Notes under the pieces: generated by a model
Told to the model about the DNA's origin: nothing
Database searches by the model: none
What the model saw: only the letters and a program-made list of their open reading frames with translations
Assembly: GCA_030649345.1 (NCBI GenBank)
Contig: JAUSKK010000029.1
Location: 5,718 to 37,717 of the forward strand
Direction of reading: 5' to 3'
Source of the DNA: Candidatus Iainarchaeum sp.
GTDB taxonomy: Archaea > Iainarchaeota > Iainarchaeia > Iainarchaeales > 0-14-0-20-34-12
Length of the DNA stretch: 32,000 bases
Made by a program: the position numbers and the translations under genes
Shown here: piece after piece, positions 692 through 32,000 of the stretch
Numbering within the stretch: position 1 is the stretch's first letter
Layout of the letters: every line of letters begins with the position of its first letter

Positions 692-759
692 GGCAATGAT
701 GATGTAAGTCGCGACCGATCCTTTCATCAGGAAGTGACGATTGAGTCCAAATCTGAGCC
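692..759 (+). ncRNA. C/D box sRNA (2'-O-methylation guide RNA)
   Basis: C box ATGATGA 696-702; 12-nt guide TGTAAGTCGCGA 703-714; D' CCGA 715-718; C' GTGACGA 734-740; 12-nt guide TTGAGTCCAAAT 741-752; D box CTGA 753-756. GGC (692-694) pairs with GCC (757-759) as a terminal stem. The exact 12-nt box spacing is the archaeal hallmark. Confidence 0.6.
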
Positions 760-894
760 TTCTATTTTCGTTGTATCGAGCATAGCGCAATTAAAATCAA
801 CAGATTTTAATGCACATTAAAACCAATGGTTTTAATCGCGAAGATACGACATCGTACCGCCGGCGATCTCCGGCGAATGGGTCCAAATCTGAGC
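745..894 (+). repeat. Hairpin-core mini-insertion, copy A (possible non-autonomous mobile element), with flanking direct repeat
   Basis: GTCCAAATCTGAGC at 745-758 recurs perfectly at 881-894 (19/24 identity if extended 5'). The 122-nt insert contains the palindromic core 788-839 and a GC hairpin CGCCGG-cgatct-CCGGCG (859-876) abutting the right repeat. Confidence 0.6.
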
Positions 895-896
895 AT

Positions 897-1952
897 TTAT
901 ATTAAATCCAAATTTTTACAAATCAAAAAAGGCTTACCAAAGAACACATGTACTTTCTGGGTTCCATGCAAATTACTTTCAATTCGATTTTTCAGTTCAG
1001 CATATTTTTCTTCCGGAATTTTTCCACGCAAAACAATCTTTTGAGCTTGCAATTCTTGAAGTTTTAAAATTAATTCGGCTTCAGTTTGGGTCATGCCTAC
1101 AACTTGGAAACGATTTTTAAAAAACACATTTTTCAATAACTGATTGGATGTCAAAAAATTGGGTTGAAAATAAAAAGTTTCAGGCAATTGTTTCAAGAGT
1201 TCAGAATACAATCCAGCACGGTCAATCCCAGCATGCAGTTCATACAAATAAGTTTGCAAAGATTGAGGTTTTAGAGTGATTGAAATTTTTTCCAAAGAAA
1301 TTAGTTTTTGATTTTCAGGAACCAAAACAAGCGAACATTCTGCTTGTTTAAATTTTCCAAAATATAAAGTCAAACAATTTAATTCATGCTCACGGTTTCC
1401 GCAATTAGATGAAATGTATTCTTTTTCGCAGTCCAACAAAATTTCTTCTGATTTAAATTCGCGGGAAACTTCAATTGCAAAATCAGAAATTTTTTGGGCT
1501 TGAATCCATTCAATCAAATCCAAAGTATTGGGCACAGTTTGATCTAAAGCTTTTACGCGCAAACCATTCACTCTCCGCGAGGGATCAGAAAACACTGCAG
1601 AAACTTTAAGTTTTTGTAAATCCAATTCTTCAAAGTCAGCAGAAATAAATTCAATATTTTTTCGGCCGTACACTTCCGCATTTTGTTCAGCGCATTTCAA
1701 AACTTTTTCATCTACATCTACTGCAATTACTTTTTTGCAAAACTGAGACAAAGCAATACTATCCGAACCAATTCCGCAACCTAAATCAATAATAGTATCC
1801 CCAGCCAAGCGTTGGGCTCGATACAAAGCAATTGCTTCCGGAGTGCTTTGCTGTAAACTCTCTGAGCTTGGAAAAAACATTTCTTTCGCACGCGAAAATT
1901 TTCCTTTGGCTTTATAGCGTAGATTTTTTAATTCAAATTTAGATAATTCCAT
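897..1952 (-). CDS. class I SAM-dependent methyltransferase (probable RNA methyltransferase)
   Basis: IIDLGCGIGSDS SAM motif I, VIAVDVDE motif II, and an SDPSRR motif. Start moved to the ATG at 1952 (MELSKFELK) because the 32 upstream codons of the tracked ORF translate a tRNA gene. Confidence 0.75.
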   Translation of the reverse strand: MELSKFELKNLRYKAKGKFSRAKEMFFPSSESLQQSTPEAIALYRAQRLAGDTIIDLGCGIGSDSIALSQFCKKVIAVDVDEKVLKCAEQNAEVYGRKNIEFISADFEELDLQKLKVSAVFSDPSRRVNGLRVKALDQTVPNTLDLIEWIQAQKISDFAIEVSREFKSEEILLDCEKEYISSNCGNREHELNCLTLYFGKFKQAECSLVLVPENQKLISLEKISITLKPQSLQTYLYELHAGIDRAGLYSELLKQLPETFYFQPNFLTSNQLLKNVFFKNRFQVVGMTQTEAELILKLQELQAQKIVLRGKIPEEKYAELKNRIESNLHGTQKVHVFFGKPFLICKNLDLI

Positions 1953-3542: not shown

Positions 3543-3757
3543 GAATAGTTTTAGAACGAAAAGAAATAAAAAAAGGACAAACAGTGCACTGAGTTATGCG
3601 AAGAAGGACAAACTAAGCTTGGATTCAAGTCCATAGTTTGAGTTCTGTAATTTGCACACGCAAAACAGTTAGGTTTTTAAATAACAAATAGTTATATTGG
3701 TGGGGTTCTTTTATTACTTTGCCTTTGCCAAGGCATGTAAAGTCGGGGTGAGAGAAA

Positions 3758-6031: not shown

Positions 6032-9000
6032 GTGAATAAATTTGAAAAAATTATTTTTATCAGCGTACTTTTAATTCTTTTAACTTTTTCAGTAAATGCT
6101 GGAACTGCAAATTATATTTCAACTATTTCGTGTGTTGGCGGACAAGAATCTCAGTGTTATTCTTCAACAGCAATTGGTTCAACTGATTGTAGTGGAGATG
6201 GTTGTTCAACTGTTTGTAAAGATGGAACTTATAAATATGGTCCAGGAACAGCCGGAGGTTCAGGCTGGATGGATTGTGTAAACAGCAGTGGTCAACCAGT
6301 TGCTGATGGAGCTACTGGATTGTGTGCTTGGGAAAGTATTGGAAGCTGTGCACAAGACGGACAAGTATTCAATACTTCTTCAACAGGATATTGTTCTTCT
6401 GGCTGGGGTTGTGTCTATGATCAAACAGTTACATTAAGCAATACTTGCCAAGATGGGTATACTGCAACCAGTTCATGCACTTACAAAAAAAGAGTTTCAT
6501 CTGCTTATCCAAATCAAACAACGTGTACACCAGCAACGCCCAGTTGTGCAGGTCATGAATGTTCTTCAACTAATTTAAGTTTGTGTACCAGTGAAAGTAC
6601 TTGTGAAACTACAGGATCAGCCAATTGGTGTCAAACAGGATATACATCATACACTTGTCAAACAGCAGCTTGTGCAACTTGTAGTTCAAGTAATTTAAGT
6701 GCATGCTATACCAATAGTGCGTGCACCAATGCAAGCGGATATTGGAATACTACAACCAACACATGCAGTGCTCAAACGCAAAGCAGTTGTACTTCAAGCG
6801 GAAAATATTGGTGTCCAAATGCTACAGGAACCAATGAATGTCAATCTACAACTTGTACTACAAGTACATGCACGGCCAGTACTCCACAGCATTGCAGTAC
6901 AACAACCAATTGCTCAAATGTAGGTGCTGTTTGGTGTGAGTCAACTCATTTATGTTATGCTTCAGGATCACAACCTTCTAATTGCAGTTCTGGAGAATGT
7001 TCAACTACCAGTGTTACCCCTTGTGTCAGCCAAGGAGATTGTACAAGTGTAGGCGGAATATGGTGTTCTGCAACCAATAATTGTAAAACCACTCAAGCTG
7101 AATGCACTCAATCTATTTCTTGTGTTCCAGGAAGTAGTCCAGCTTGTACCACAAGTGCTGAATGTTCAACTGCTTCAGGATATTGGTGTTCTACCTACAA
7201 TCAGTGTTATATTAATTCCAGTGGCTGTCCAAGTGCAGGCAGTTGTGATACTAGCAATCGATATGCTTGCACAAGTTCCAGTACCTGCAATACAGCTGGC
7301 GGAACATGGTGCAGCATAGAAAGCACTTGTTTTAATCCAAATGAAAATTATTGTTGTTCTAATACCAACTTAACTGGTTGTGAAACAGTAGATAGATGTA
7401 CTCAAATTGGCGCAGGATATTGGTGTGCCAGAAATAATACTTGTGTTAGTAGTTCCAGTCAATGTACAAATACTTCAACATGCTCTTCTTCAGATTATTA
7501 TCAATGCAATGATTCAACAGGATGTTCTAGTATTGGTGGAACTTGGTGTCCAACTACGGCAACCACAGTAGCGTATTGTAGTTCTCCTGGTCAATCCTGT
7601 ACTACAATTGGAATGTGTGGAAATAGTTCATGCAATGTAGGAGAAACAGCAGGTACTTGCCCAAACGATTGCAATGAAAATACATCAAATTATTGTTCTG
7701 TTAATAATCCAGGTGGATGCAAAGAACCAGGTACTTGTACAAGCATAGGTGGAACCTGGTGTCCTCAAACCAACACAGCTCCTGCAGGATGCGCCCCTCC
7801 TGGAATAACGTGTCAGCAAGGCCAGACTTTTTGCGGAAATTATGTTTGTGAAACTGGAGAAACTCAGTATTCTTGTTCTACAGATTGTGGAAACCCTAAA
7901 GAACTTGTTTGCCCGCCAAAAGACAAAATAGAATATGAAAAAAAGTCCTGTACAGCCAATAAAGGAATTGGAAAAATTTACATGGCACCGGATGGATGCG
8001 AATATTTTTCATGTGATTATTCTACGCGAACCACTTGTCCAACTGGCGATGATGAACGAAAAGCAATTGATTCTTGTAAAAACGATGGACAAGATTGGGT
8101 TTTCAATTATTATGGAAATTGTAAATTTGTAGAATGTTTACATAAAACAGTTTGTGCCAGCAAAGAAGATTTGAAAGCCACTCAAAAGAAATGTGAGAGT
8201 TTAGGTTTAGGATATTATTATTCAAGTGATTATCAAGGCTGCCCCAATATTCAATGTAAGCAGCAAGATTTCAAAGTTGTTCCTCCAACACCTGCTCAAT
8301 GCAGAACAGAATACGATGCCTATTCAGGATATAGATATGTATGTGATACAACTCAAAATACTTGCCCTAGTTTAGATAGTCAAGCAGACTCTAAACGGAA
8401 ATGTTATGATAGCGGCGGAAGACCTGATATTGTAAAAGGGCCCTCTGGTTGTGAATATTATACGTGTAACTTTGGAGAAGACAATTCGTATTTCTTTGAT
8501 TATCAAGGATGTCCTTCAGGAGAAGAATTACAAAAAACAGTGAATCAATGCAATGAAGAAGGAAAAGAAGTATTTACAGAAATTGGATTAAATGGTTGTA
8601 AGAATGCAAAATGTGTAGAGCCAGGAACAGTTGAACAAAAAACAGAAGATGCTTGTATAGGATTACCCATTGAAAAATATAAAGAACAAAAAAGCGCTTG
8701 TGAAAATCAAGACGGAATATTTGTAGAAAAATGCAGTGCCTATGAATGTATTTCTAAAAGCGATATTGGAAAATGTGAAAGCATTGAACCTGAAAAAGCA
8801 GTGTATGAAAAATGCGCAGCTAAAGGCGGAGAATTAATTGTTCGAAGAGATGACAATAAATGTCCTGTATTTATTGAATGTGTTGGGCGAAATGAAGTAG
8901 CTGAATTTGAAGATACAGAAGTCACTGACACGATTGGAGCAGCTCAAGCTTTAGAAATTGTATTTAATTTAGAAAAACTAAATTTAATTTTAGATAAATT

Positions 9001-9682
9001 AGAACGACAAACTGAAGAATTAAAAACATATTATGAAAGCGTTGGAAATACAGAAAATGTTGAAAGATTTGTCCGAGTAAAAGCTATGTTTCAGGCAGCC
9101 CAGCAAGAAGTTGAATCCATTAAACAATATTTGGCAGACAATGCAGATAATTTAACGATTGAAAATTTAAAAGACATTAAAACAAAAGTCAAATATATCA
9201 AAAAAGGAGTATTGAAAGATATTTTATATGTCATGCTGGCCAAAGAACCTAAACCAGCAACCAGCACAGGAACAGATATTAAAAATTGTGAAGAAAGTGA
9301 ACAATGTTTTGTCAGCAATTTAAGAGTTTGCCAGAAAGCATTTATGGAACATACTGAAGTTGGATTTTCTGGGAAAATTGAAATTACAGGATTGGAAGAA
9401 AACAAATGCAATGTAAAAGCTGCTGCAAATTATCAAGGAGAAAGTTATGAAATGGGCTGTGCATTTGACAATTATCCATTTGCTGATTTGAACCCGGAAA
9501 GCATGCAAAAATATTGTTCTGGCACATTAATTGAAAAAATGAAAAAAGAAGGAATTCGGACAGAGCAACCTACTAGCCCAGAATCAACTGCAGCAAGTAC
9601 TACGGATGAAAAAAAAGACATTAATGATCCATTAACAGGAGAACCATTGGTAAATCCAGCAGACAACAGTGAGGGAATTTAA
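6032..9682 (+). CDS. giant secreted Cys/Ser/Thr-rich modular surface protein (1216 aa), no membrane anchor
   Basis: GTG start preceded by AGAGTGA (Shine-Dalgarno-like). Signal peptide ends in VNA. Contains nine C-x7-C-x5-C-x3-G-[GA]-x-W-C modules, two CGN..C..GE..C..DC modules, seven C-x12-C-x11-16-C-x4-C modules, a coiled-coil segment and a C-terminal Cys domain. Many N-x-S/T sequons. Confidence 0.8.
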   Translation: MNKFEKIIFISVLLILLTFSVNAGTANYISTISCVGGQESQCYSSTAIGSTDCSGDGCSTVCKDGTYKYGPGTAGGSGWMDCVNSSGQPVADGATGLCAWESIGSCAQDGQVFNTSSTGYCSSGWGCVYDQTVTLSNTCQDGYTATSSCTYKKRVSSAYPNQTTCTPATPSCAGHECSSTNLSLCTSESTCETTGSANWCQTGYTSYTCQTAACATCSSSNLSACYTNSACTNASGYWNTTTNTCSAQTQSSCTSSGKYWCPNATGTNECQSTTCTTSTCTASTPQHCSTTTNCSNVGAVWCESTHLCYASGSQPSNCSSGECSTTSVTPCVSQGDCTSVGGIWCSATNNCKTTQAECTQSISCVPGSSPACTTSAECSTASGYWCSTYNQCYINSSGCPSAGSCDTSNRYACTSSSTCNTAGGTWCSIESTCFNPNENYCCSNTNLTGCETVDRCTQIGAGYWCARNNTCVSSSSQCTNTSTCSSSDYYQCNDSTGCSSIGGTWCPTTATTVAYCSSPGQSCTTIGMCGNSSCNVGETAGTCPNDCNENTSNYCSVNNPGGCKEPGTCTSIGGTWCPQTNTAPAGCAPPGITCQQGQTFCGNYVCETGETQYSCSTDCGNPKELVCPPKDKIEYEKKSCTANKGIGKIYMAPDGCEYFSCDYSTRTTCPTGDDERKAIDSCKNDGQDWVFNYYGNCKFVECLHKTVCASKEDLKATQKKCESLGLGYYYSSDYQGCPNIQCKQQDFKVVPPTPAQCRTEYDAYSGYRYVCDTTQNTCPSLDSQADSKRKCYDSGGRPDIVKGPSGCEYYTCNFGEDNSYFFDYQGCPSGEELQKTVNQCNEEGKEVFTEIGLNGCKNAKCVEPGTVEQKTEDACIGLPIEKYKEQKSACENQDGIFVEKCSAYECISKSDIGKCESIEPEKAVYEKCAAKGGELIVRRDDNKCPVFIECVGRNEVAEFEDTEVTDTIGAAQALEIVFNLEKLNLILDKLERQTEELKTYYESVGNTENVERFVRVKAMFQAAQQEVESIKQYLADNADNLTIENLKDIKTKVKYIKKGVLKDILYVMLAKEPKPATSTGTDIKNCEESEQCFVSNLRVCQKAFMEHTEVGFSGKIEITGLEENKCNVKAAANYQGESYEMGCAFDNYPFADLNPESMQKYCSGTLIEKMKKEGIRTEQPTSPESTAASTTDEKKDINDPLTGEPLVNPADNSEGI

Positions 9683-9978
9683 TGACTGAAAAAGAAACTA
9701 AATCCAAAGAAGGAATTTTAGACAAAAAAATGAATCTAAGCTTTAGCATGAGCCATATTATTATTGCAGTTTTATTATTGGCAGTTATTTCATTGGCTTA
9801 TGTTTTAATAACAAATCCCAATGCATTCAAGCAAAGCTTGGAGCGAACAGCTTTAGAAAATGAAACTGTTAATCCTGTAACCACAGAACAAGAAGCCAGC
9901 CAAGCCATTACAGGAATTGGACAAGACATTAAAGGATTAAGTTCTACTTTAGATGAAATTGATCAAAGCTTGGGTTAA
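9682..9978 (+). CDS. single-pass membrane protein, translationally coupled to the upstream giant protein
   Basis: TAATG stop/start overlap at 9680-9684. One TM helix (IIIAVLLLAVISLAYVLI) followed by a helical, charged tail. Confidence 0.6.
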   Translation: MTEKETKSKEGILDKKMNLSFSMSHIIIAVLLLAVISLAYVLITNPNAFKQSLERTALENETVNPVTTEQEASQAITGIGQDIKGLSSTLDEIDQSLG

Positions 9979-9992
9979 GTAAAGTCAATGTA

Positions 9993-10000
9993 TTTATAAT
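9993..10000 (+). promoter_or_regulatory. TATA box (TTTATAAT)
   Basis: Ends 22 nt upstream of ATG 10022. May be an internal promoter within the surface-protein operon. Confidence 0.3.
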
Positions 10001-10021
10001 AGAAAATACTTGAGTACTAGA

Positions 10022-12910
10022 ATGAAAAAGTTAATCTTATTTTTTTTAATTCTATTAGCTTTGCCTGCTTTCTCAGTTTATGAAATTGTAAATCAAACAT
10101 GCACCAGCACACAACAAGGAAGTTTTACACAGGCTAATTTGTTATTGGAAACTTCAGACAGTTATTTTTTAACCTCTGATAAAAATGTATACCAGGCTCC
10201 AAAAATAGCAATAGGTACTTGGACTTTGAAAGGAAGTATTCCGTATCGAATTACTCAATTGGTAAATGATCCTGCTACAAATACTTTGTATGCCGCTGGA
10301 ACTCCTGCCAATGATGGCTGGAATTTTTATACCTACAAGTCAGTAGACCAAGGGGTTACTTGGACGCTAGTCGGCACGCCGATTAATAGTTTGAATTATT
10401 TTTTATTTTACAGAGTAAATTCATTAAATGCCAGTAATGGATTCAACAAAATTTATTCCTTAGCCGGAGTCCCTCTTCAATGGTATGAGATTGCCAGCTT
10501 GGAAGAAGGAACACAAATTCGGGCAATTACATCCGGCAATTTTCAAGAGCATGCAGTAGGCTACAAGAATAATATTGGAACTTTGTATTCAGGACCATTT
10601 CTTAACCAGTTAACAGCCCGCGGTTCTTTGCCGGAAAATGAACAGCCTTGGGGTGATGCTTTGGGATTTTATGATGGAAACTTGTTTATGATTACCCAAA
10701 ACAATGAAGGAAAAGGTTCTGTTTTTAGGTCAATGAATTCAGGAAATACTTGGGAAAAAGTATTCACGCAAGACATGGCTTTCACTGAAATTGCCGGAAA
10801 ACCTGAAACTGGAATAAATGTTTTGGCAAGCAATGGAAATATTTTTAGATCCTGGAATGGAACCACATGGATTAGTTTGGGAACTTCTGGATTTTCTCCC
10901 ATGGGTGAATTGTTATCTCCGGAAGCGGGAAATTATTTATTGGCAGTCATTACTGGAAGATTGAATCAAGTAATATGCAATGCTTGGCCTATGTTGAAAG
11001 TAAAACAAAAAAATATTTCCGCAGCACCTGGAGCTACAGTAACTTTGGATGTTTCAGATTCTACAGATTTAGAAAATCATACAATTCAATACACTTGGAA
11101 TTTTTCTAGCGGACCCCTAGGAGCGCCAGCGCCTGTTTTGAATAATTCAGCCACAGCAATTGCAACTGCAATTATGCCTAACCAAACTGGAGAATATTTT
11201 TTTGAAATTAGATTAAAAGACAACGGAAGTCCAGCAATTCTGCCAGCCCAAGGCAGTGCAGATTTAATTACAGTTACAGTTCAAGAAAATCAAGCTCCAA
11301 CAGCAAATGCGGGCCCAGATATTCAATGCACAATAAATCAAAATTGCACAGTGCAAGGAATTGGAACAGATCCAGAAAATCAGTCTTTAGAATATAATTG
11401 GAATTTGGCACTGAATTCACCTCAAGGCCCAATTCAAACTGTCGGAGCAGAAGATCAAACAAATTATACTTTTACCGCAGCTCAAATTGGGACTTATATT
11501 TTAACTTTTGCAGTTACAGATAATGCCAATCAAACTGCAAAAGATCAAGTAACGATCACAATGGTTTCAGATCAAGTCAATCACGCGCCCATAGTAAATG
11601 CTGGACCTGATGTACTTTGTGTAATTAATGAAGAGTGTACTTTAGTTGGACAAGCCAGTGATCCAGATAATGATGAATTAAATTATTTCTGGACACCGGA
11701 AGTTATGCCAGGCAATGCCATCCCAGCACAACCACCCATTAGTCTTACTTTAGTGTTTACAGCAAACACAATTGGAAATTATACATTTAAATTAACTGCA
11801 CAAGATCGAGAAGATTTAGATGACCCGAACTTATTGGAAGCCAGTGATACAGTTAATGTAATCATGTTTGCCAGTCAAGAAGAATTAGAAGCAGCCAATC
11901 AAGTGCCTATAGCGAATGCAGGAGTCAATCAAATTGTACACACAGGAGAAATTGTTCAATTAAATGGAAATCAAAGTTCAGATCCAGAAGGACAAACAAT
12001 AAATTATGCTTGGACTCAAGTCAGCGGACCTTTAATTACAATTCAAAACGGAAATCAAATGCTTGCAAATTTTACTCCAACTCAAATTGGAACTTATGTG
12101 TTTCGATTAAGTGTTACAGATTCTTTGGAAGCCAGTGCCAATGATGATATTAGTATTCAGGTATTGGAACAAATTTCTGGAACACAAACAGTCTGCGGAA
12201 ACAATGTATGTGAAGAAGGAGAAAATGTTGTCAGCTGTGCGTTTGATTGTGAAATTAATTCAAGCGGAGAAAGACCAGGATTTAGTGTTCCTTTTGCGCG
12301 CGCAGGAAGAGATCAAAATGTAGAAGAAGGAGATTTTGTGATATTGGATGGAAGTACAAGCTCAGATGCAGATGAACAAGCACTGGCTTTTGAATGGGAA
12401 CAAACCAGCGGAGAAACTGTAGCCATTATTAATGCAGATCGAAGTAAAGCAATTTTTGTAGCAGGAGAAACAGGAACAGAATATGAATTCAAATTAACAG
12501 TCACAGACGAATCCGAAAATACTGCAACTGATTTAGTTAAAGTCAAAGTAGAAACTGTGACAGCTCGAAGAACTACCGGCAGCGGACAAAACCCAACAGA
12601 TACTACAGTAAATGCAGGAAACACTTTAGGAAATACATGCAGTGGAACTGTGTGTTTAGGATTTTGTTATTCAGGACAAGGAATATGCTGTACAGACGGC
12701 TGGCATTCGAATACTGAAACATGTCAAGAGTCTGGAGCACTTCCAATTGGAAACAATGTTGATTTTAATTTAGGAACTGGAGGAATGCCTGATTTTCTAA
12801 GCTCTCCGATTTTTTTAATATTAACTGCAGTTTCAATTTTAGGCGGAATTATTGCATGGTTCTTGAAATTTAGAAAAAAAGAACCCTATCAAAAAAAGCA
12901 AGCTATTTAA
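10022..12910 (+). CDS. membrane-anchored surface protein: BNR/Asp-box beta-propeller-like region, five PKD-like Ig domains, Cys stalk, C-terminal TM
   Basis: Signal peptide MKKLILFFLILLALPAFS. Asp-boxes SVDQGVTW and SMNSGNTW. Repeated NAGPD/NAGVN...(Y/F)xW...G.Y.F.L.V.D PKD-like units (nt ~10997-12559). CGNNVCEEGENVVSCAFDC module. TM IFLILTAVSILGGIIAWFL followed by KFRKK. Confidence 0.8.
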   Translation: MKKLILFFLILLALPAFSVYEIVNQTCTSTQQGSFTQANLLLETSDSYFLTSDKNVYQAPKIAIGTWTLKGSIPYRITQLVNDPATNTLYAAGTPANDGWNFYTYKSVDQGVTWTLVGTPINSLNYFLFYRVNSLNASNGFNKIYSLAGVPLQWYEIASLEEGTQIRAITSGNFQEHAVGYKNNIGTLYSGPFLNQLTARGSLPENEQPWGDALGFYDGNLFMITQNNEGKGSVFRSMNSGNTWEKVFTQDMAFTEIAGKPETGINVLASNGNIFRSWNGTTWISLGTSGFSPMGELLSPEAGNYLLAVITGRLNQVICNAWPMLKVKQKNISAAPGATVTLDVSDSTDLENHTIQYTWNFSSGPLGAPAPVLNNSATAIATAIMPNQTGEYFFEIRLKDNGSPAILPAQGSADLITVTVQENQAPTANAGPDIQCTINQNCTVQGIGTDPENQSLEYNWNLALNSPQGPIQTVGAEDQTNYTFTAAQIGTYILTFAVTDNANQTAKDQVTITMVSDQVNHAPIVNAGPDVLCVINEECTLVGQASDPDNDELNYFWTPEVMPGNAIPAQPPISLTLVFTANTIGNYTFKLTAQDREDLDDPNLLEASDTVNVIMFASQEELEAANQVPIANAGVNQIVHTGEIVQLNGNQSSDPEGQTINYAWTQVSGPLITIQNGNQMLANFTPTQIGTYVFRLSVTDSLEASANDDISIQVLEQISGTQTVCGNNVCEEGENVVSCAFDCEINSSGERPGFSVPFARAGRDQNVEEGDFVILDGSTSSDADEQALAFEWEQTSGETVAIINADRSKAIFVAGETGTEYEFKLTVTDESENTATDLVKVKVETVTARRTTGSGQNPTDTTVNAGNTLGNTCSGTVCLGFCYSGQGICCTDGWHSNTETCQESGALPIGNNVDFNLGTGGMPDFLSSPIFLILTAVSILGGIIAWFLKFRKKEPYQKKQAI

Positions 12911-12933
12911 ACAATAAAGTTCTCTTTGTATAA

Positions 12934-15900
12934 ATGAATTCAAACAAAATTTTGCTTTTTTTAGTCTTAATTTTTTCAATCCAAACAGTTCAAGCTCAAT
13001 GGACTGAAACCACACCTTTGCCTTTAACTGGAATGACAATTGGAAGAGATATCACACGAGCCAGTGATGGCACTTTGTATGTTGGAGGAGACGGCATTCG
13101 TGTTTATAGTGCCAACAGCAATGGAACTTCTTGGACAGATACTAGCGTACTTGGAACAGTTGCATTTAATGCATTGGCCGCCGGTGATTCTGGAAACATC
13201 TATGCATTAACTGGAACAGCAGCAGGAAGTGGGATTCATAGATACAATGGAACAACTTGGACAACGCTTAAAACATTTGACAATATTTCCAGTGCCAATG
13301 ACATAGTCTACGTTGGAAACAATACATTGTATTTTTCTTATTTTAATGATGTAAATCGTTCAACGGACGGTGGAGTGAACTGGGCTTCAACTGGGTTGGT
13401 TACAGCATTGGGTGGAAGTGCTTCATCGTATTCAGTGCAAGATTTAGATTACGATGAAACTGGAGCAATATATGCTGTAGTGCAAAGATTTGCTCCAACT
13501 CAAGCTGAAGTTTGGAGATACAATGGAACAACTTGGACACAAGTAGCTGCTCTGTTAAATTATTCTTCTTCAAGAATTTTGGCTCACAAAGAAGGTTCTG
13601 CACCAACTCAAGTTTTTATTAATAATAATACAATTTTACTCAAAGGAAGTGGTGATGGCGCATTAACTTTCAGTGAAATAAAAACATTTACAAACTCAGT
13701 TCAAAAAATTTACAGATTAAGTGATGGAAAAATTACAGTTTTAGAAGGAGTTAAAGTATGGCGTTCAGCCAATGCAGATTCAGATATTATTGCTGGAGCA
13801 ACATTTAATGATTTGGGAAATGTTCGAAGTACAGGAACTGCTGGTGGAATAACCCAATCCGCCAACGGAAATTTATATGTTCTGGCCTATTGGCTGGGCG
13901 CAGGAGGAAGCAGTAATTTTGAATCCGGTGTTTATTATTTTGGGTCAGCACCGCCACCCAGCCAAGTTTGTGGAAATGGAACTATTGAAAGTCCAGAAGT
14001 ATGTGATGGAGCTAATTTAAATTCTCAAACTTGTTCCAGTCAAGGTTTTGCTTCTGGAACTCTGGCATGTAATGCCAATTGTTTAGGATTTAATACTTCT
14101 TCATGTGTTTCAAATCCTGTTTGTGGAAATAGTGTATGTGATGCTGGAGAAACCAGTGTAAATTGCTCCATGGATTGTGGCCCAGCTTCAACAACACCCA
14201 AAGCTTGCTGTACCAATCAAGATTGTAGTACTAGCCAAATTTGCAATCCCAGCAATCAAAGATGTGAAACAAAAACTGGAACTTCTTGTACCAGCAGAGC
14301 CAATTGTCCTGCAGGCCAAAGTTGTGTTTCTGGAATTTGTGGAAACAGTACTTCAACAGATCCAAACCGAACAGGACAAGGAACCAATTGTAATGGAAAT
14401 AATGGAATTTGCCCAATTGGATATTATTGTTCTCCTGTAACTGACACTTGTGTTCCAGGAGCAGTATGTTCAACATCATCTACAGACATGAATAATCATA
14501 CGTGTCCGCAAACTTGTGCAACTGTAACAGAACAAGGATACAGTACTACATCTACAACTTGTTTATCACAATCTTGTATTCCGACTTTTTCAACTCAAAA
14601 CATTCCGAATGGACCAGTTCAATGTTGTGGAATCAATTGTCAAACTGGACAAATTTGCGGAAGTAATGGAACTTGTCAAAACAGACAAAGATGTTCTTTA
14701 CCAGCAGACTTTATTGGAGGAACTGGAAGCACAACAGGACCTTCATGCGCAACAGATACAACTTGCGCAACAGGATATAGTTGTCAAACTGGATTTTGTA
14801 GATTAGCACCTGATTGCCCAACAGGAAATACTTGCGGACAAGACAGATATTGTGCGCCTTCAAGTGCTCCAGTTTGTCCTGGATCACAAGAGTGTGAAAG
14901 TCCATGTCAAAGATACGATACTGGGTTAGGTCAATGTGTGCAAGATAATTCTTTGCCTACTTGTTCACCTGGAGAAATTCAATGTTGTTCAGACAGTCAA
15001 TGTGGTTCAACGCAAGTATGTGTTCCAGATGGAAGTTCTACTGGAATTTGTCAAGAAAGAACTACTTTAACAGCATGTGAAAGTCAATCCAGTTACCAAG
15101 AAATAACATGTACCACCAATGCAGATTGTGCAGGACATGGAATAAATCCAATTTGTAATACTGCAAACAATAAATGTTATAATAAAACAGGAACAACTTG
15201 CAGTCCAGGAGATACAACAAGAGGTTGTAGTCCGAATACAGAATGTTTAGAAAATTATTGTTCAACCCCAAGTCTAGAAATGGTACCAACACAAGGTTCT
15301 TGTGCACCTGGAACAACTTGTGCAACCTCAGGTCCAAATCAAAATTTATGTGTTCCTTCTGGAACAATTTGCCCCAGTTCAGGAAATACTTGCCCAATTC
15401 CAGAAACTCCAATCAACAATGTATGTTTTACCTGCCAAGGAGAAAATTGTACAATTACTGACAGTATTGAATGTCCTACAACAGGACAAACACAAGCAGG
15501 AAGTATTTGCAATACAGACACAGATTGTTCATATTACGAAAGTTGTAATATTCAAACCAATGTTTGCCAAACTTTAGCATGCACAGGCACAGAAGTACCA
15601 GTCAATCACCGGTGTATTCCTGGCAGTGATTTTTGCCAAGATGCAACACTCAGAGAATTGGAAAGAATTATTGAAACCAATACAACCAATAGTGAAGTAA
15701 CCAGTTTACTGGAACGATTGCAGACAGAAATAGCTGCAGGAAATATAGGACAAGCACAGAATACTTTGCAAAAAATTATTGAAAAATTACCTGGAACTCA
15801 AGGAACAGATACCATTACTTTATTGCGGGAAGCCAGAACACAATTGGAAGCAGGAAATGCAGGACAAGCTCAAGCCATTTTACAAAGAGCAGCCCAGCAA

Positions 15901-16023
15901 AGCGGAGTGGTTAGCTCAGAACAATTTTCCAACCAGCAGCAAATCCAAAATGTATTGTACGGAATCATCGGAGTTCTGACTGCAGTTATTGGAGCATTGG
16001 CCTTCTTGTATTACAAAAAATAA
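12934..16023 (+). CDS. membrane-anchored surface protein: BNR-like propeller, ~550-aa Cys-knot repeat region, helical repeats, C-terminal TM
   Basis: Signal peptide ends in VQA. STDGGVNW Asp-box and YNGTTW repeats. CGNGTIESPEVCDGAN... and CGNSVCDAGETSVNCSMDC modules. Many C-x3-(D/N)C-x2-6-C-x4-8-C units. Tandem ...EAGNxGQAQ..LQ helices. TM VLYGIIGVLTAVIGALAFLYY followed by KK. Confidence 0.8.
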   Translation: MNSNKILLFLVLIFSIQTVQAQWTETTPLPLTGMTIGRDITRASDGTLYVGGDGIRVYSANSNGTSWTDTSVLGTVAFNALAAGDSGNIYALTGTAAGSGIHRYNGTTWTTLKTFDNISSANDIVYVGNNTLYFSYFNDVNRSTDGGVNWASTGLVTALGGSASSYSVQDLDYDETGAIYAVVQRFAPTQAEVWRYNGTTWTQVAALLNYSSSRILAHKEGSAPTQVFINNNTILLKGSGDGALTFSEIKTFTNSVQKIYRLSDGKITVLEGVKVWRSANADSDIIAGATFNDLGNVRSTGTAGGITQSANGNLYVLAYWLGAGGSSNFESGVYYFGSAPPPSQVCGNGTIESPEVCDGANLNSQTCSSQGFASGTLACNANCLGFNTSSCVSNPVCGNSVCDAGETSVNCSMDCGPASTTPKACCTNQDCSTSQICNPSNQRCETKTGTSCTSRANCPAGQSCVSGICGNSTSTDPNRTGQGTNCNGNNGICPIGYYCSPVTDTCVPGAVCSTSSTDMNNHTCPQTCATVTEQGYSTTSTTCLSQSCIPTFSTQNIPNGPVQCCGINCQTGQICGSNGTCQNRQRCSLPADFIGGTGSTTGPSCATDTTCATGYSCQTGFCRLAPDCPTGNTCGQDRYCAPSSAPVCPGSQECESPCQRYDTGLGQCVQDNSLPTCSPGEIQCCSDSQCGSTQVCVPDGSSTGICQERTTLTACESQSSYQEITCTTNADCAGHGINPICNTANNKCYNKTGTTCSPGDTTRGCSPNTECLENYCSTPSLEMVPTQGSCAPGTTCATSGPNQNLCVPSGTICPSSGNTCPIPETPINNVCFTCQGENCTITDSIECPTTGQTQAGSICNTDTDCSYYESCNIQTNVCQTLACTGTEVPVNHRCIPGSDFCQDATLRELERIIETNTTNSEVTSLLERLQTEIAAGNIGQAQNTLQKIIEKLPGTQGTDTITLLREARTQLEAGNAGQAQAILQRAAQQSGVVSSEQFSNQQQIQNVLYGIIGVLTAVIGALAFLYYKK

Positions 16024-18596: not shown

Positions 18597-21077
18597 ATGA
18601 CGCATAACCAAAAATTCTTAATTAGTTTAGCTATTTTAGTAGTTTTGTTTTCTTTGACTGCTTTGGCTCAAGATCAACCACCTGTAGAAGGAGGAGATAC
18701 ACCACCAACAGATCAAGGACCACCGCCAACAGATCAACCACCAATTGAGGATCATCCACTGGAAGGCGGAGAACAACCACCTGCAGATCAACAAAGACCA
18801 CCTGAAGGACAGAATCCTGAAGGAGACCCTAATTACAGACCACCAGAAGGACAAGGGCCTTATCCAGGACAAGATGGACAACAACCTCCATTTGATCAAG
18901 GAAGACAACCTGAAGGACAAAATTTTCAAAGACCAACTACAGGCCCAGGTAACTGTCAAGGACAAGAACAATGCCAATTATATTGTGGAGTACACCCAGA
19001 GGAATGCCAACAATGGGCTGGCCAACAAGGAGTTCAAAGACAAGGCCCAATGAATGGAGGCCAAGGCTATGGATCTGAAAGAAGATCCGGCGGAATTGGT
19101 GGACCTCAATGTGGAACACCCGAAGAATGTAGAGGTTTAGCTCAAGAATTTGGTGTTGCAAATAGTATTGGAGTACGAACAGGACCTAGCGGATGCACCA
19201 GTGAAGAAGAATGTAAAAAAATATTTGATGAAAACCCACAAGAAGTTAGGCAATGGGCTCAACAAAATGGAATGATTGAACACAAGGGACAATTTATTGA
19301 AGCACGCGCCGGACCCGGCGGATGTTCAAGTCCAGAAGAATGTATGACTTATTGTAGAGAAAATCCAGAATCCTGTGATCAATTTGCTGGAAGAAGAGGA
19401 CAAGGATTTGAACAAGCATTTAATAAAATTGAACAAAGAGATCAACGAAAAGAAATGCAACAAGAGCGCAGAAAAGAAATGCGATTTGAAGGAATTCCAC
19501 GCGAAATAATTGAAGCTGGAGCAGAAACAGAATTTGTTCAAATGATGGCAGCCATGGCTAAATTCAGAACCCAGCGATTGCTAACTGAATTGGATAAAAT
19601 GGAAGAACGCATTTCATTGGCTGGAACAGAATTAGGAATCCAAATCGATGGAAGCAAATTTTCAGAAATGAAAACAAAAATTGAAACTGCATTAAATGAT
19701 TTAGGAAATGTAACCAATGCAGAAGAAGCCAATGCAAAAATGAAAGCTTTCTTTGAAATCATGGAAGGACCCAATGGAGTTCAAGGAGTATTTGAAAACT
19801 TTGGACAACAAATGCAAGAAAAAGTACAAGTATTGTTTGATGAAAAATTCAAACGAATGCAAACATTGCAAGAACAAATGAAAAACAAAGAACAAGAATG
19901 TAGAACTGCTGGAGACCAAATGAGACAACAACAAGAACAAAATATGCAGCAGCAAAGACAACAACAAGATGAACAGTTTAGAACTCAGGATGAAGAAAGA
20001 AGAAGACAATACGAAGAACAAATGAGAAATCAACAAGGACAATACCCTCAAGGCGGAGATCCAAATTATAGACCACCAGAAGGACAAGGACCTTACCCAG
20101 GCGATGGTGGACAGTACCCTCAAGGAGGAAGTTATCCTGAAGGAAGCATGCCACCAGAAGGCGGAGATTATCAGCCACCTCCAGAACAACCACCAGCCAG
20201 CAATGCAACTGCTCAACCAATTGTAATACAATTGCAAGAATTTCCAGGACCTCAAGGACCTGGCCCCAATGATTTCGGCGGAGGCTTTCCAGACGGACCC
20301 ATGAACGGCGGTCCTTATGACAGCGGACAAGGATTTGGCGGACCTCAAGGACCCGGCGGATTTGGAGATGGAGAAATGCCAGCAGCTTGTCAAGAAATGC
20401 AAACACTTGGAACTGAAATGCAAGCTATTGGAGAAGAAATGAAAGCTTTAGGAGAAAAAGTACAAGGCGTATTTGGAAAACCTGAAGACCATGAGCAAGA
20501 CTTTGAAGAAGAGCCTTTGCCTCCTGAATTAATTGAACAGCAAGCGCAATTGTTCATCAAAGTATTTGATTTCAAATTCAATGGAATCAAACAAAAACGA
20601 GATGAAATTGCAGGCCAAGGATTCGATGTAAAAGAATTCGATGAATTAATTGCATGGATTATTTCCAGAAAAGAAGAAGGACTCAGAATTATTCGTTCTG
20701 GAGATGAAGAAAAAATGGATGAATTCTTCAATAGCATGGGAGATTCTCAATTTGACTGGGAAGATAGAATCCGAGATTCTATTGCACGACAACAATTGGA
20801 AAAACAAATTTCCAAAGTTGAAGAATTTTTACCCAAAGCCCAAGAAGCCATTAATGCAGGAAAAGAACGAGGTTTAGATACCAGTGACTTGGAAGAAATT
20901 TACGGGGAATTGAAAGGATTGGTTGAAAATGCACGTGCACAATTAAGCCAAGGAAAAGAAATTTCTCTGCAAGATTTCAGACTACAATTACGAGAAGTGT
21001 ATCTGAATTTCCGAGAAGAATGGGTTAGCTTACGAGAAGAAGCTGCAAGAACAGGATTAATTGTACTGGCAAGGTGA
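18597..21077 (+). CDS. secreted Pro/Gln/Gly-rich protein with four G-C-x-(S/T)-x-E-E-C modules and long coiled coils
   Basis: Signal peptide ends in ALA. Low-complexity PPxDQ/PEGQ tracts. Modules GNCQGQEQCQLYC..., GPQCGTPEEC..., GPSGCTSEEEC..., GPGGCSSPEECMTYC... Heptad-rich Q/E/R/M central and C-terminal parts. Confidence 0.75.
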   Translation: MTHNQKFLISLAILVVLFSLTALAQDQPPVEGGDTPPTDQGPPPTDQPPIEDHPLEGGEQPPADQQRPPEGQNPEGDPNYRPPEGQGPYPGQDGQQPPFDQGRQPEGQNFQRPTTGPGNCQGQEQCQLYCGVHPEECQQWAGQQGVQRQGPMNGGQGYGSERRSGGIGGPQCGTPEECRGLAQEFGVANSIGVRTGPSGCTSEEECKKIFDENPQEVRQWAQQNGMIEHKGQFIEARAGPGGCSSPEECMTYCRENPESCDQFAGRRGQGFEQAFNKIEQRDQRKEMQQERRKEMRFEGIPREIIEAGAETEFVQMMAAMAKFRTQRLLTELDKMEERISLAGTELGIQIDGSKFSEMKTKIETALNDLGNVTNAEEANAKMKAFFEIMEGPNGVQGVFENFGQQMQEKVQVLFDEKFKRMQTLQEQMKNKEQECRTAGDQMRQQQEQNMQQQRQQQDEQFRTQDEERRRQYEEQMRNQQGQYPQGGDPNYRPPEGQGPYPGDGGQYPQGGSYPEGSMPPEGGDYQPPPEQPPASNATAQPIVIQLQEFPGPQGPGPNDFGGGFPDGPMNGGPYDSGQGFGGPQGPGGFGDGEMPAACQEMQTLGTEMQAIGEEMKALGEKVQGVFGKPEDHEQDFEEEPLPPELIEQQAQLFIKVFDFKFNGIKQKRDEIAGQGFDVKEFDELIAWIISRKEEGLRIIRSGDEEKMDEFFNSMGDSQFDWEDRIRDSIARQQLEKQISKVEEFLPKAQEAINAGKERGLDTSDLEEIYGELKGLVENARAQLSQGKEISLQDFRLQLREVYLNFREEWVSLREEAARTGLIVLAR

Positions 21078-22959: not shown

Positions 22960-24422
22960 CTGATAAATGGCCTTTATTGGATTCCTATTTCAGGACCAAA
23001 AGCTTTGTAGACCAAGAAATTGCTAGTTTTGACCAATTTGTAGAAGAAAAAATGCCTGAAATTTTGGAAGAAAACAAAGAAATTGCCCCAAAAATTGAAG
23101 AAGTTCGAATTGAATTAAGCGACATTGAAGTATTAAAACCTAGAATTATTGAAGTCGATGGTTCGCCTAGAAATGATTTTTATCCAGTAGAAGCAAGATT
23201 GCGAAACAGAACCTATTCTGGTCCTTTGTATATTACTATGAAATTGTACAGAAGAGATGTAGAACAAGATGTACGCCGAACGTATATCGGGGAATTACCC
23301 ATTATGACCAAATCTAAGTTATGCTGGTTAAATGGAAAAACCGAAGATGAATTAATTGGCTTAGGCGAAGACCCAATGGACTTTGGCGGATATTTCATTA
23401 TTAATGGAGCAGAAAAAGCATTAATGACTCAAGAAGTTTTATCCAGTGACCGAGTTCTAATTTCCAAAACAGGCAAAGATGATGTACGTGCTGAAGTGAT
23501 TAGTACTCGCGGTGCCTTCAAAGGAAAAGTTAGTGTCAACAGAAAAAACAATGGTTCTTTGAGTGTAAGCTTTCCAGCCAGTCCAAAAAAATTACGTTTA
23601 TTTGTTTTAATGAAAGCTTTGGGTTTGGATACTAAAGAAAAAATAATGAATGCTTTTACTCCAGGAAAAGAAATTGAAAACGATATTTTAGTAAATTTAG
23701 AAAGCTTGGATGTAGAAAGTGTAGAAGATGCTTTAGATCGAATTGGAAAATATGTTGCACCCGGACAAGTTATTGATTATAGATTAAGAAGAGCGCAAGA
23801 AATTTTAGATGGATTCTTATTACCCCACATTGGTCAAACCAAAGAAGACAGACTAGCTAAAGCGTATTATTTGGGAATGATGGCCAGCAAAGCAGTTGAA
23901 CGATACCATGGCTTACGTGAAGAAGATGACAAAGATCATTATGCCAACAAACGTTTAGAATTAAGTGGAAAATTAATGGAACACTTATTTAGGTATGCTT
24001 TCAAATATTTAATTAAAGACTTAAAATTCCAAATTGACAGAACTATTACCCGAAGAAGAAAATTAAACATTAGCACTATTGTTCGACCGGATGCCATTAC
24101 TGAAAGAATTCGGTTTGCTATGAGTACAGGAAACTGGATTGGACGAGCTTCCGGAGTTAGTAAATTTATGGATCGAGTCAATTACTTGAGTCCTTTAACC
24201 GATATGCGAAAAATTAAAAGTTCATTAAACAAAAACAGAGAATTATACGAAGCCAGAGATGTTCATGGAACTCACTGGGGACGAGTTGGAGCAATTGAAA
24301 CACCCGACGGCCCAAATTGTGGTTTAGTAAAAAATTTAGCCATTTTAGCTCGAGTAACTACAGATTCCAAAATTTTACCAGTTGAAGAATTATTAAAATC
24401 TAGAGGAGTAAAACTAGAATAA
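22956..24422 (+). CDS. rpoB2: DNA-directed RNA polymerase subunit B'' (Rpo2N)
   Basis: N-terminal half of RNAP subunit B: FGGYFIINGAEKAL, HYANKRLELSG, THWGRVGAIETPDGPNCGLVKNLA. Confidence 0.95.
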   Translation: MTDKWPLLDSYFRTKSFVDQEIASFDQFVEEKMPEILEENKEIAPKIEEVRIELSDIEVLKPRIIEVDGSPRNDFYPVEARLRNRTYSGPLYITMKLYRRDVEQDVRRTYIGELPIMTKSKLCWLNGKTEDELIGLGEDPMDFGGYFIINGAEKALMTQEVLSSDRVLISKTGKDDVRAEVISTRGAFKGKVSVNRKNNGSLSVSFPASPKKLRLFVLMKALGLDTKEKIMNAFTPGKEIENDILVNLESLDVESVEDALDRIGKYVAPGQVIDYRLRRAQEILDGFLLPHIGQTKEDRLAKAYYLGMMASKAVERYHGLREEDDKDHYANKRLELSGKLMEHLFRYAFKYLIKDLKFQIDRTITRRRKLNISTIVRPDAITERIRFAMSTGNWIGRASGVSKFMDRVNYLSPLTDMRKIKSSLNKNRELYEARDVHGTHWGRVGAIETPDGPNCGLVKNLAILARVTTDSKILPVEELLKSRGVKLE

Positions 24423-24513
24423 GGAGAGGGTCAGGATTACCCTAAAACTGGGGAGAACCTTGGTTCTCCGCGGTTTGGAATTATTAAAATCTAGAGGAGT
24501 CAAATTAGAGTAA
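24387..24513 (+). repeat. 36-nt direct repeat of the rpoB'' 3' end bracketing a 55-nt GC-rich double-hairpin insert (copy C)
   Basis: 24387-24422 versus 24478-24513 is 33/36 identical. Insert 24423-24477 carries hairpins AGGGT-7nt-ACCCT (24427-43) and GGAGAACC-TT-GGTTCTCC (24452-69). Confidence 0.7.
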
Positions 24514-31090: not shown

Positions 31091-31519
31091 ATGGCCAGAG
31101 GAGAATTTGCAGCACGACAATTAGAAAGTGTGCGACAAAAATGGCGATGGAAAGACCCCTACTATAAATCCAGAGCATTGCGGCATAACGTAAAATACGA
31201 TTTATTGGAAGGATCCCCTCAAGCACGAGGCATTGTCTTAGAAAAACGCGGAGTTACAGCACGACAGCCCAATTCAGGTATTCGAAAATGTGTACGCGTT
31301 CAATTAACCAAAAACGGAAGACAATTAACTGCATTTGCGCCTAAAGATGGAGCCATTAAATTTATTGAAGAACACGACGAAGTCATTGTAGAAGGATTGG
31401 GTGGACGAAAGAAAGGATCTCCTGGAGATTTATGGGGAGTGAAATACAAAGTCATTAAAGTCAACAACCAATCCTTGCAAAGTCTTCGAACTGGAAAGAT
31501 AGAAAAGGTTAAGAGGTAA
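31091..31519 (+). CDS. rps12: ribosomal protein uS12
   Basis: [25 protein letters not shown] and [23 protein letters not shown] Shine-Dalgarno upstream. Confidence 0.95.
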
Positions 31520-31656
31520 TGGAAATAATTCAGTGCTGCTGAATGAAATGAAGCACAATTAAAACGAACAAGTTTTAATGTGCATTAAACCAAAGGTTTA
31601 ATCGCAGCACAACACACCAACCAGGTTATGGTTGAAAAGGTAAAGAGGTAATGGAA
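31502..31656 (+). repeat. Hairpin-core mini-insertion, copy B, bracketed by a 23-nt direct repeat spanning the rps12 stop and rps7 start
   Basis: GAAAAGGTTAAGAGGTAATGGAA (31502-24) versus GAAAAGGTAAAGAGGTAATGGAA (31634-56) is 22/23 identical. The insert has the core 31556-31605, homologous to 788-839. An outer stem pairs GTGCTGC (31533-39) with GCAGCAC (31604-10). Hairpin CAACC-7nt-GGTTG abuts the right repeat. Confidence 0.65.
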
Positions 31657-32000
31657 TTGAATAAAACAGAAAACGTACAAACACCTGCAGAAACCACAAC
31701 CAGTGTGGAAAAAGTCACTGAATCCGTAGTGACTGAAACCAAAACTGTTGTCAAGCCAACAAAAAGTTTTAATGTAAAATTGTTTGACAAATGGAGTTCA
31801 GAAGGAGTTCAAATCAATGACTTAAGTTTAGTGCGCTATGTTTTATTGGACTCAAAACGAATTCCAATTACTTATGGAAAATATTCTAAAAAAGCATTCC
31901 AAAAATCTCAAATGAGTATTGTAGAACGTTTGATTAACAAAATTATGCGATCTGGTCAAGGAAAAAGAAAATTATCCGGAAAGTATATTCGCGGACGAGG
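31651..32000 (+). CDS. rps7: ribosomal protein uS7, 3' end beyond the window, with an N-terminal extension of about 45 aa
   Basis: ATG overlaps the TAA of the second rps12-end copy (TAATG) and follows a GAGGT Shine-Dalgarno. KLFDKWSSEGVQINDLSLVRYV...MSIVERLINKIMRSGQGKRKLSGKY matches archaeal S7. Absent from the ORF track only because no stop codon falls inside the window. Confidence 0.85.
   Translation, partial: MELNKTENVQTPAETTTSVEKVTESVVTETKTVVKPTKSFNVKLFDKWSSEGVQINDLSLVRYVLLDSKRIPITYGKYSKKAFQKSQMSIVERLINKIMRSGQGKRKLSGKYIRGR

Follow-up and report, generated by a model that had tools for sequence, protein, structure and literature searches.

A gene-less, hairpin-ended insert that duplicates the 3' end of a C/D box sRNA in Iainarchaeota: a probable non-autonomous mobile element with counterparts across the phylum

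Genomic context and the sRNA locus

The analysed stretch (hereafter the window; 32,000 nucleotides from a Candidatus Iainarchaeum sp. contig) is AT-rich (34-36% GC) and encodes an S12 protein identical to the S12 of an NCBI "Candidatus Diapherotrites archaeon" MAG. At its left end lie genes for RNA methyltransferases, a C/D box sRNA and a tRNA with an intron, and the operon rpoH-rpoB''-rpoB'-rpoA'-rpoA''-L30e-NusA-S12-S7 extends over 22.7-32 kb. The tRNA gene, tRNA-Asp(GUC) (2004-2153, - strand; Rfam match of 44 bits, missed by ARAGORN), carries at the canonical 37/38 position an intron of ~75 nt with a textbook bulge-helix-bulge (UGCGACC.cugu.CAC.acaa / uugu.guag.UUC.GGUUGCG), which is unrelated to the inserts described below. 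A 215-nt spacer between divergent genes (3543-3757) folds at -42 kcal/mol and contains a T-arm-like GGATTCAAGTCC, with no credible Rfam match. Three very large secreted/surface proteins (PKD/Ig domains, Cys-rich repeats) and a Pro/Gln/Gly-rich repeat protein (6032-16023 and 18597-21077) account for the close direct repeats of the window other than those treated here.

The features of the sRNA locus are:

692..759, + strand: C/D box sRNA, the host gene (box layout read from the sequence; Rfam C/D matches sub-threshold)
692-694/757-759: terminal stem GGC/GCC of the sRNA
696-702: C box AUGAUGA of the sRNA
715-718: D' box CCGA of the sRNA
734-740: C' box GTGACGA (GUGACGA) of the sRNA
753-756: D box CTGA (CUGA) of the sRNA
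738..761, + strand: left direct repeat, made up of the sRNA's functional 3' portion (last bases of the C' box, D guide, D box, terminal stem) and 2 nt beyond it
762..873, + strand: inserted element of 112 nt (AU-rich left part, outer stem, two AT hairpins, linker, GC hairpin)
770-777/843-850: outer stem of the insert, from its fold
791-810 and 816-836: two AT hairpins of the insert, within the core 784-839
858-875: GC hairpin of the insert, overlapping the first two bases of the right repeat
874..897, + strand: right direct repeat, in which the sRNA 3' end persists as a relic that departs from the left copy at 3 positions, one of them being the lost last stem base
897-1952, - strand: convergent methyltransferase gene, whose stop codon (897-899) adjoins the right repeat

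With its C, D, C' and D' boxes, guides of ~12 nt (two, of 12 nt each) and a terminal stem, 692-759 qualifies as a C/D box sRNA, and the Rfam C/D models match it below their gathering scores (best: sR1, E=0.0016). A preliminary description of this DNA had reported an exact 14-mer, GTCCAAATCTGAGC, at 745-758 and 881-894 (offset 136), and had interpreted the insert between the copies as duplicating the 3' end of a C/D sRNA. Both statements held: the repeat extends to 24 nt (CGATTGAGTCCAAATCTGAGCCTT at 738-761 versus CGAATGGGTCCAAATCTGAGCATT at 874-897; 21/24 identical, 14 exact), and its left copy lies inside a well-formed sRNA. The left repeat leaves the sRNA intact, the right repeat being a leftover copy. 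The GC hairpin placed before the right repeat at 859-876 does exist, but its position is 858-875 (one base off) and it overlaps the repeat by two bases. The insert folds with an MFE of -41 kcal/mol (z = -2.8) and is the most structured intergenic region of the window (-0.30 kcal/mol/nt at a GC of 0.42).

As the right repeat adjoins the stop codon of the methyltransferase gene, the spacer between the sRNA and the methyltransferase must have been essentially nil before the insertion. The sRNA end having thus abutted a convergent stop codon, only an insertion that duplicated the junction could have spared both genes. No empty site was found for this locus, because synteny has been lost in the relatives (where homologues of the flanking methyltransferase are not syntenic), and the Logan contig with the nearby redoxin gene stops near the tRNA, before reaching the sRNA.

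Two further bracketed inserts in the window

Gene ends are duplicated around an insert at two other sites, both in the RNA polymerase and ribosomal-protein operon:

24387..24513, + strand: third bracketed insert, at the rpoB'' end, bracketed by 36-nt repeats
24387-24422 and 24478-24513: the 36-nt rpoB'' repeats (33/36 identical; all 3 differences synonymous)
24423-24477: rpoB'' insert of 55 nt, GC-rich, with a hairpin at 24445-24476
31502..31524, + strand: left repeat of the sister copy, at the rps12 end (TAA overlaps ATG)
31525..31633, + strand: sister element of 109 nt, between rps12 and rps7
31533-31539/31603-31609: outer stem of the sister element, from its fold
31552-31605: core of the sister element, from alignment to 784-839
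31618-31634: terminal hairpin of the sister element, from its fold
31634..31656, + strand: right repeat of the sister copy, supplying the ribosome-binding site and start codon (31651) of rps7

The rps12|rps7 repeats differ at a single position (GTT -> GTA, synonymous). The sequence of the rpoB'' insert is unrelated to those of the other two, and the layout is the same, its hairpin ending 1 nt before the right repeat. We take insertion together with duplication of the gene end as shown.

Close exact repeats of 14 nt or longer number six in the window, three of them being the gene-end brackets; a first-order Markov model of its sequence predicts 0.23. Two of the three window inserts recur in an independent Logan assembly: that at rpoB'' in full (contig L002 spans it) and that at rps12|rps7 with identical sequence, up to the right repeat. 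The Logan contig L001 (SRR13727527) ends at window position 31635, 2 nt into the rps12|rps7 right repeat, an end that could reflect a branch in the assembly graph (e.g., alleles with and without the insert).

The lack of a transposase gene in the window, as previously asserted, was borne out, and no integrase, reverse transcriptase or Cas1 was found to be encoded there either. Searches with Rfam 15 of the window, all three inserts and 7 related loci returned no match to any insert, even at permissive thresholds.

A shared core with a conserved fold

The sRNA-locus and rps12|rps7 inserts had been proposed to form a repeat family on the basis of ~43 matches over 52 columns, with the caveat that this likeness might vanish under a shuffled-composition test. 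Realigned, the cores (784-839 vs 31552-31605) are identical at 46/56 columns, and their local score of 58 lies ~18 sd above that of 2000 dinucleotide shuffles (15.2 +/- 2.4, max 27). In both folds an outer stem encloses two AT hairpins, and is followed by a 7-nt linker and a 6-bp terminal hairpin that overlaps the right repeat by 1-2 nt. The outer stem is perfect in both copies and different in sequence (GUUGUAUC/GAUACGAC at the sRNA, GUGCUGC/GCAGCAC at rps12|rps7), and the AT hairpins show three compensatory base pairs together with compensating one-base indels, which fall, as first described, on opposite arms and leave perfect stems of 9 bp and 8 bp. The two inserts, which are the most structured intergenic regions of the window, are thereby established as members of one family whose structure has been conserved.

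We stress that this family is known from two copies only. No other match to either insert exists within the window, nhmmer and blastn recovered no further core in 1.28 Mb of relatives, and the exact core pattern gave 0 matches in viral, genome and metagenome collections. A relaxed pattern of the second hairpin gave 0 matches in viral contigs and 6 in metagenomes, all of them chance occurrences inside unrelated coding sequence; the hairpin of the rpoB'' insert likewise had 0 matches in viral contigs. These searches exclude the rest of the source genome, and the low copy number of the 784-839-type core is the main weakness of the family.

Absence of the two operon inserts from relatives

Across 80 related loci the gap from rps12 to rps7 usually measures between -1 and ~30 nt, often with a TAATG overlap, and close relatives have junctions of 0-20 nt throughout the same operon. 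The rps12|rps7 insert is derived, since the junctions of the two closest relatives (S12 identity 83% and 82%) measure 5 nt and 23 nt, respectively. When the element and one repeat are removed in silico, a relative-like TAATG stop/start overlap is restored. The two inserts at protein-coding genes (i.e. rps12|rps7 and rpoB''|rpoB') were thus demonstrated to be absent from relatives.

Two observations on the same operon are set apart from these results. L010 and L013 carry purine-rich, A-rich spacers of 50-280 nt at nearly every junction, which lack obvious hairpins or repeats and represent a different kind of spacer expansion. The S7 protein of the window has an apparent N-terminal extension of ~43 residues (31651-31790; MELNKTENVQTPAETTT...) relative to close relatives starting with MTKVFGKW, and a comparable or larger gap precedes the conserved S7 start in several further Iainarchaeota clades.

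The same architecture across Iainarchaeota

By scanning for close direct repeats, searching for shared motifs and scanning for C-terminal peptides, we found the bracketed architecture (gene junction, hairpin-rich insert of 37-116 nt, junction copy) ~17 times in ~14 other Iainarchaeota genomes, and its recurrence across the phylum is thus demonstrated:

Close-repeat scan: L014 (three sites), L026, L050, L008, L079, L023, L047, L074
Shared-motif search: L075 (two sites)
Peptide level: L078, L010, L035, L039

The affected genomes come from assemblies of many different studies. A downstream copy of the last eight residues plus stop codon follows 10 of 2782 ORF ends, versus 0 in the reversed-sequence control. 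The repeats range from 14 to 55 nt, varying even within one genome; those of L014 and L050 are perfect (17-55 nt, with the 55-nt repeat in L050). In L014 (2821) and L023, gene starts or promoters are duplicated, and some elements of L077 and L065 lack any repeat. In none of 15 elements was the best terminal inverted repeat better than in shuffles. Between the end of the last hairpin and the right repeat the median distance is 0 nt, between the left repeat and the start of the first hairpin it is 12 nt, and all elements are in sense orientation relative to the flanking genes.

Element sequences are lineage-specific: those of one genome resemble each other at different targets (the window, L014, L075, L077), and the same gene end bears unrelated elements in different genomes. 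Colonisation is heavy in L075, L077 and L014, while L003-L009 are compact. Among relatives sharing the same EF-2 tail, tail duplicates occur only in L035 (~7880-8050) and L039 (~13615-13760), as arrays in which the EF-2 end (..WQFFLE*) appears three times in a row with related ~30-nt hairpins between. EF-2 is a classic casposon target, and by analogy these arrays bring to mind a mini CRISPR array or an attachment site used repeatedly in tandem.

A 5' motif, GCGAAC-RRA-GTGAGC, is common to elements of L014, L023, L065, L075, L077 and L008. The members of this superfamily are intercistronic, sit at most junctions of the RNA polymerase and ribosomal-protein operon, and combine the 5' motif with a hairpin whose internal loop is GA/GAA and with a 3' hairpin. 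The following loci were delimited:

L075: 1583-1690, 3159-3227, 5037-5126, 9851-9960
L077: 1444-1556, 3357-3465, 9895-10000, 11084-11255
L065: 1928-1990

In L075, L065 and L077 the 3' hairpin carries a Shine-Dalgarno sequence (GGAGGUGA) shortly before the next start codon, so these elements may be co-opted ribosome-binding sites. The motif resembles the left part of the rps12|rps7 copy weakly, and for this reason we claim no homology between the window family and the superfamily.

Divergence between the repeat copies

Codons were compared over the coding parts of ten repeat pairs that had been found by nucleotide seeding. Seventeen of the 23 differing codons are silent and 6 non-silent; random substitution yields 20% silent differences, and 17 silent ones were reached in 0 of 20000 randomisations. 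The silent differences include stop-to-stop changes and Leu CTC/CTT versus TTA/TTA. A peptide identical or close to the original, stop codon included, can still be read from the downstream relic in 7 pairs, and in 5 an identical block of 16-24 nt is followed by a tail that has diverged up to the stop codon, a pattern that is partly an effect of the seeding of the repeat search.

Mostly synonymous differences are not what a simple duplication followed by neutral decay of the relic predicts. They may indicate that the relic was converted from functional tails of insert-free alleles in a recombining population, or that one copy was brought in by the element or by a foreign allele, possibilities that the data do not separate.

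Comparison with known systems

The preliminary judgement that no described family fits was upheld by the lack of Rfam matches, terminal inverted repeats and a bulge-helix-bulge motif. Like MITEs, the elements are small, non-coding and structured, occur between genes in several copies per genome, have direct target repeats on both sides and rely on an enzyme that is supplied from elsewhere; unlike MITEs, they have asymmetric ends with a single terminal hairpin, and repeats of variable length (14-55 nt) instead of the fixed 2-10 nt. A MITE was rejected on two grounds, no element having terminal inverted repeats (0/15) and no short fixed-length duplication being present. With the bacterial, RAYT-mobilised REP/BIME/REPIN sequences they share GC-rich hairpins in the extragenic spaces of operons, lineage specificity and possible effects on mRNA. 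REPs are not known to make a target duplication, whereas the present elements are archaeal, have target duplications and lack a known RAYT. The MITE-like C/D sRNAs of Pyrobaculum calidifontis differ from the inserts in having inverted repeats and in lying far from genes (PMC6009581).

Archaeal integrated elements target the 3' ends of genes (EF-2 included), restore the reading frame with their own sequence, and have attachment sites of 8-69 bp that are reused in tandem (PMC6563490). The likeness to such attL/attR elements, casposons at EF-2 among them, lies in the 3'-end repeats, the restoration of the gene by the upstream copy, the tandem reuse of sites and the EF-2 target (PMC6563490). The inserts satisfy the defining condition of attL/attR, namely direct repeats that reproduce the target gene's 3' end and leave that gene restored. 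The integrated elements measure kilobases and encode an integrase or casposase, whereas the inserts are 37-116 nt long, gene-less and found at many targets per genome; a site-specific integrative element fails for want of an integrase and of a single preferred target, one family occurring at several. Casposons have fixed duplications of 14-15 bp and terminal inverted repeats, neither of which is seen in the Iainarchaeota elements. A CRISPR mini-array or casposon was likewise rejected: the repeats are local gene ends that differ per locus (14-55 nt), and neither cas genes nor terminal inverted repeats were found.

Long target duplications of variable length are produced by insertion sequences of the IS1634/IS1549 type and by target-primed (SINE-like) retroposons, the latter having a defined 3' end and a variable 5' part. 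Insertion sequences of the IS1634 type are bacterial, 1.5-2 kb long and equipped with inverted repeats and a transposase, unlike the inserts, which also differ from retroposons in lacking an A-tail. We know of no type of target-primed retrotransposon in archaea. Double-hairpin elements and GC clusters of fungal mitochondria are tiny, GC-rich, made of two or more hairpins, scattered in an AT-rich compact genome and apparently mobile; they are organellar rather than archaeal, and long gene-end duplications are undescribed for them.

Three further candidates were set aside. A palindromic element (PATE) derived from IS200/IS605, which should have subterminal hairpins at each end, no target duplication and a TnpA in the genome, does not agree with a hairpin at the right terminus only, the presence of long duplications and the absence of TnpA from the window (the rest of the genome being outside the scope of the search). 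For an archaeal bulge-helix-bulge intron, nothing spans the rpoB'' or rps12|rps7 inserts and the sRNA locus offers only a weak AU/GU match, the same search having recovered the tRNA-Asp intron as a positive control. A VR/TR pair of a DGR, for which repeats of ~100 nt or more with changes at template adenines would be expected next to a reverse transcriptase, was rejected: whichever copy is taken as template, adenines are not singled out among the differences, the short repeats belong to housekeeping genes, and the window encodes no reverse transcriptase; most DPANN reverse transcriptases belong to DGRs (PMC8632793). The element resembles a MITE/REP-like extragenic element and leaves the scars of an integrative element, and it fails defining features of each.

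Origin of the inserts

The absence of the protein-gene inserts from relatives, the wide occurrence of the architecture with lineage-specific sequences and the mainly synonymous repeat differences are additions to the preliminary description. On balance, we think it probable that the sRNA-locus region is a gene-less, non-autonomous mobile element of ~112 nt, inserted at the 3' end of the C/D sRNA with duplication of ~24 nt of the target. Such an element is inferred to move within the genome to new gene junctions, where (in very compact genomes) only those insertions whose duplication spans the gene end would survive. We infer that the duplication is made from the target at each insertion, because the element occupies multiple targets within the genome, and it could arise through cuts a variable distance apart or through recombination across a short identical stretch. 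With duplications so variable in length, a fixed-stagger transposase and a Cas1-type ruler are both disfavoured. The element has a fixed polarity, running from a variable AU-rich left part through a structured core to a GC hairpin with its foot on the right repeat. Polarity and orientation bias together point to recognition of the terminal hairpin in single-stranded DNA or RNA, putatively by a trans-acting enzyme that the window does not encode. An IS200/IS605-type TnpA, suggested earlier as a recombinase that recognises hairpins, does not by itself explain long target duplications. Against the mobile-element reading stand the mere two copies of the core, the missing empty site for the sRNA, the lack of a candidate enzyme or of a known prokaryotic transposition chemistry with these features, and the mostly synonymous differences between repeats; moreover, the strict sense orientation could instead indicate a function at the RNA level.

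The duplicated tails could alternatively have arrived with the element. Under this view the mobile unit, 91-143 nt long and perhaps a circle or a concatemer, would include a gene end of its own and integrate where a short identical block allows a single crossover; part of the left repeat would then be element-borne, and the right repeat would be the displaced native end. The mostly synonymous differences (including the stop-to-stop and the Leu changes), the identical block followed by a diverged tail in five pairs, the tandem tail-insert-tail-insert-tail arrays at the EF-2 end of L035 and L039, and the similar behaviour of archaeal integrated elements at gene 3' ends (PMC6563490) would all suit such an attachment-site-like integration. 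We nevertheless hold it to be unlikely: element sequence tracks the genome and not the target, so that tails would need re-acquiring at every new target; no integrase lies nearby, a free form of 91-143 bp is unprecedented, and the block-plus-tail pattern owes part of its weight to search seeding. An immobile hairpin could also have been left by horizontal allele replacement, in which a foreign upstream gene recombined in with its own hairpin spacer and an illegitimate far join at the hairpin foot left the native end as a relic. This would account for synonymously diverging tails, for hosts that are highly conserved genes and for hairpin feet placed exactly at the junction (as expected if exonuclease trimming stops at a stable hairpin). 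It would also require donors that already carried the same element behind both the sRNA and rps12, and it leaves unexplained the perfect 17-55-nt repeats (L014, L050), the duplicated gene starts or promoters (L014 2821, L023) and the multi-copy families within a genome, which makes it improbable in our estimation.

A functional RNA, i.e. a cis-acting or small RNA serving as a processing, stability or translational-operator module in operon transcripts, with incidental repeats, would be consistent with the compensatory changes in a conserved fold, the strict sense orientation and the Shine-Dalgarno sequence of the 3' hairpin in L075, L065 and L077. Such a function is hard to reconcile with closest relatives that lack the element at the same junctions, with repeats far beyond chance and with a copy that lies behind an sRNA and opposite a convergent gene, a setting in which an operon role is hardly meaningful; no Rfam family matches either, and we see only a slim case for it as the primary explanation. 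Later co-option of a mobile element for an RNA role remains possible. Chance similarity or an assembly artefact is effectively refuted: a single close repeat of 14 nt does arise in ~21% of simulated windows, but three gene-end brackets in one window, the margin of the core score over the shuffles, the agreement of an independent assembly and the recurrence of the pattern in assemblies from many different studies cannot be dismissed in this way.

Implications

We know of no prokaryotic transposition chemistry that joins duplications of 14-55 nt to a single terminal hairpin without any terminal inverted repeats. Since long variable duplications, a single terminal hairpin and strict orientation fit no known chemistry, the enzyme responsible for the movement of the mobile element favoured here could be new, and the mobility mechanism behind it has a real chance of being novel too. 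More speculatively, and as a possibility that we put forward only tentatively, the Iainarchaeota (DPANN) may harbour an undescribed class of gene-less, hairpin-ended micro-elements of 37-116 nt that insert at gene ends with long variable duplications, maybe travelling as tiny units with a gene-tail copy included, or via a hairpin-recognised RNA or single-stranded intermediate. We found no description of such elements in the literature. If true, this would constitute a mode of micro-element mobility outside MITEs, REPs, insertion sequences, casposons and integrase-borne elements.

DPANN genomes are tiny and densely packed, leaving almost no landing room for mobile DNA. An element that always duplicates the junction into which it inserts would show how a parasite can settle in essential operons (RNA polymerase, ribosomal proteins, EF-2), even where stop and start codons overlap, and leave its host alive. 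The relic gene tails would, in addition, record past alleles, and their synonymous divergence would offer a handle on recombination in uncultured populations.
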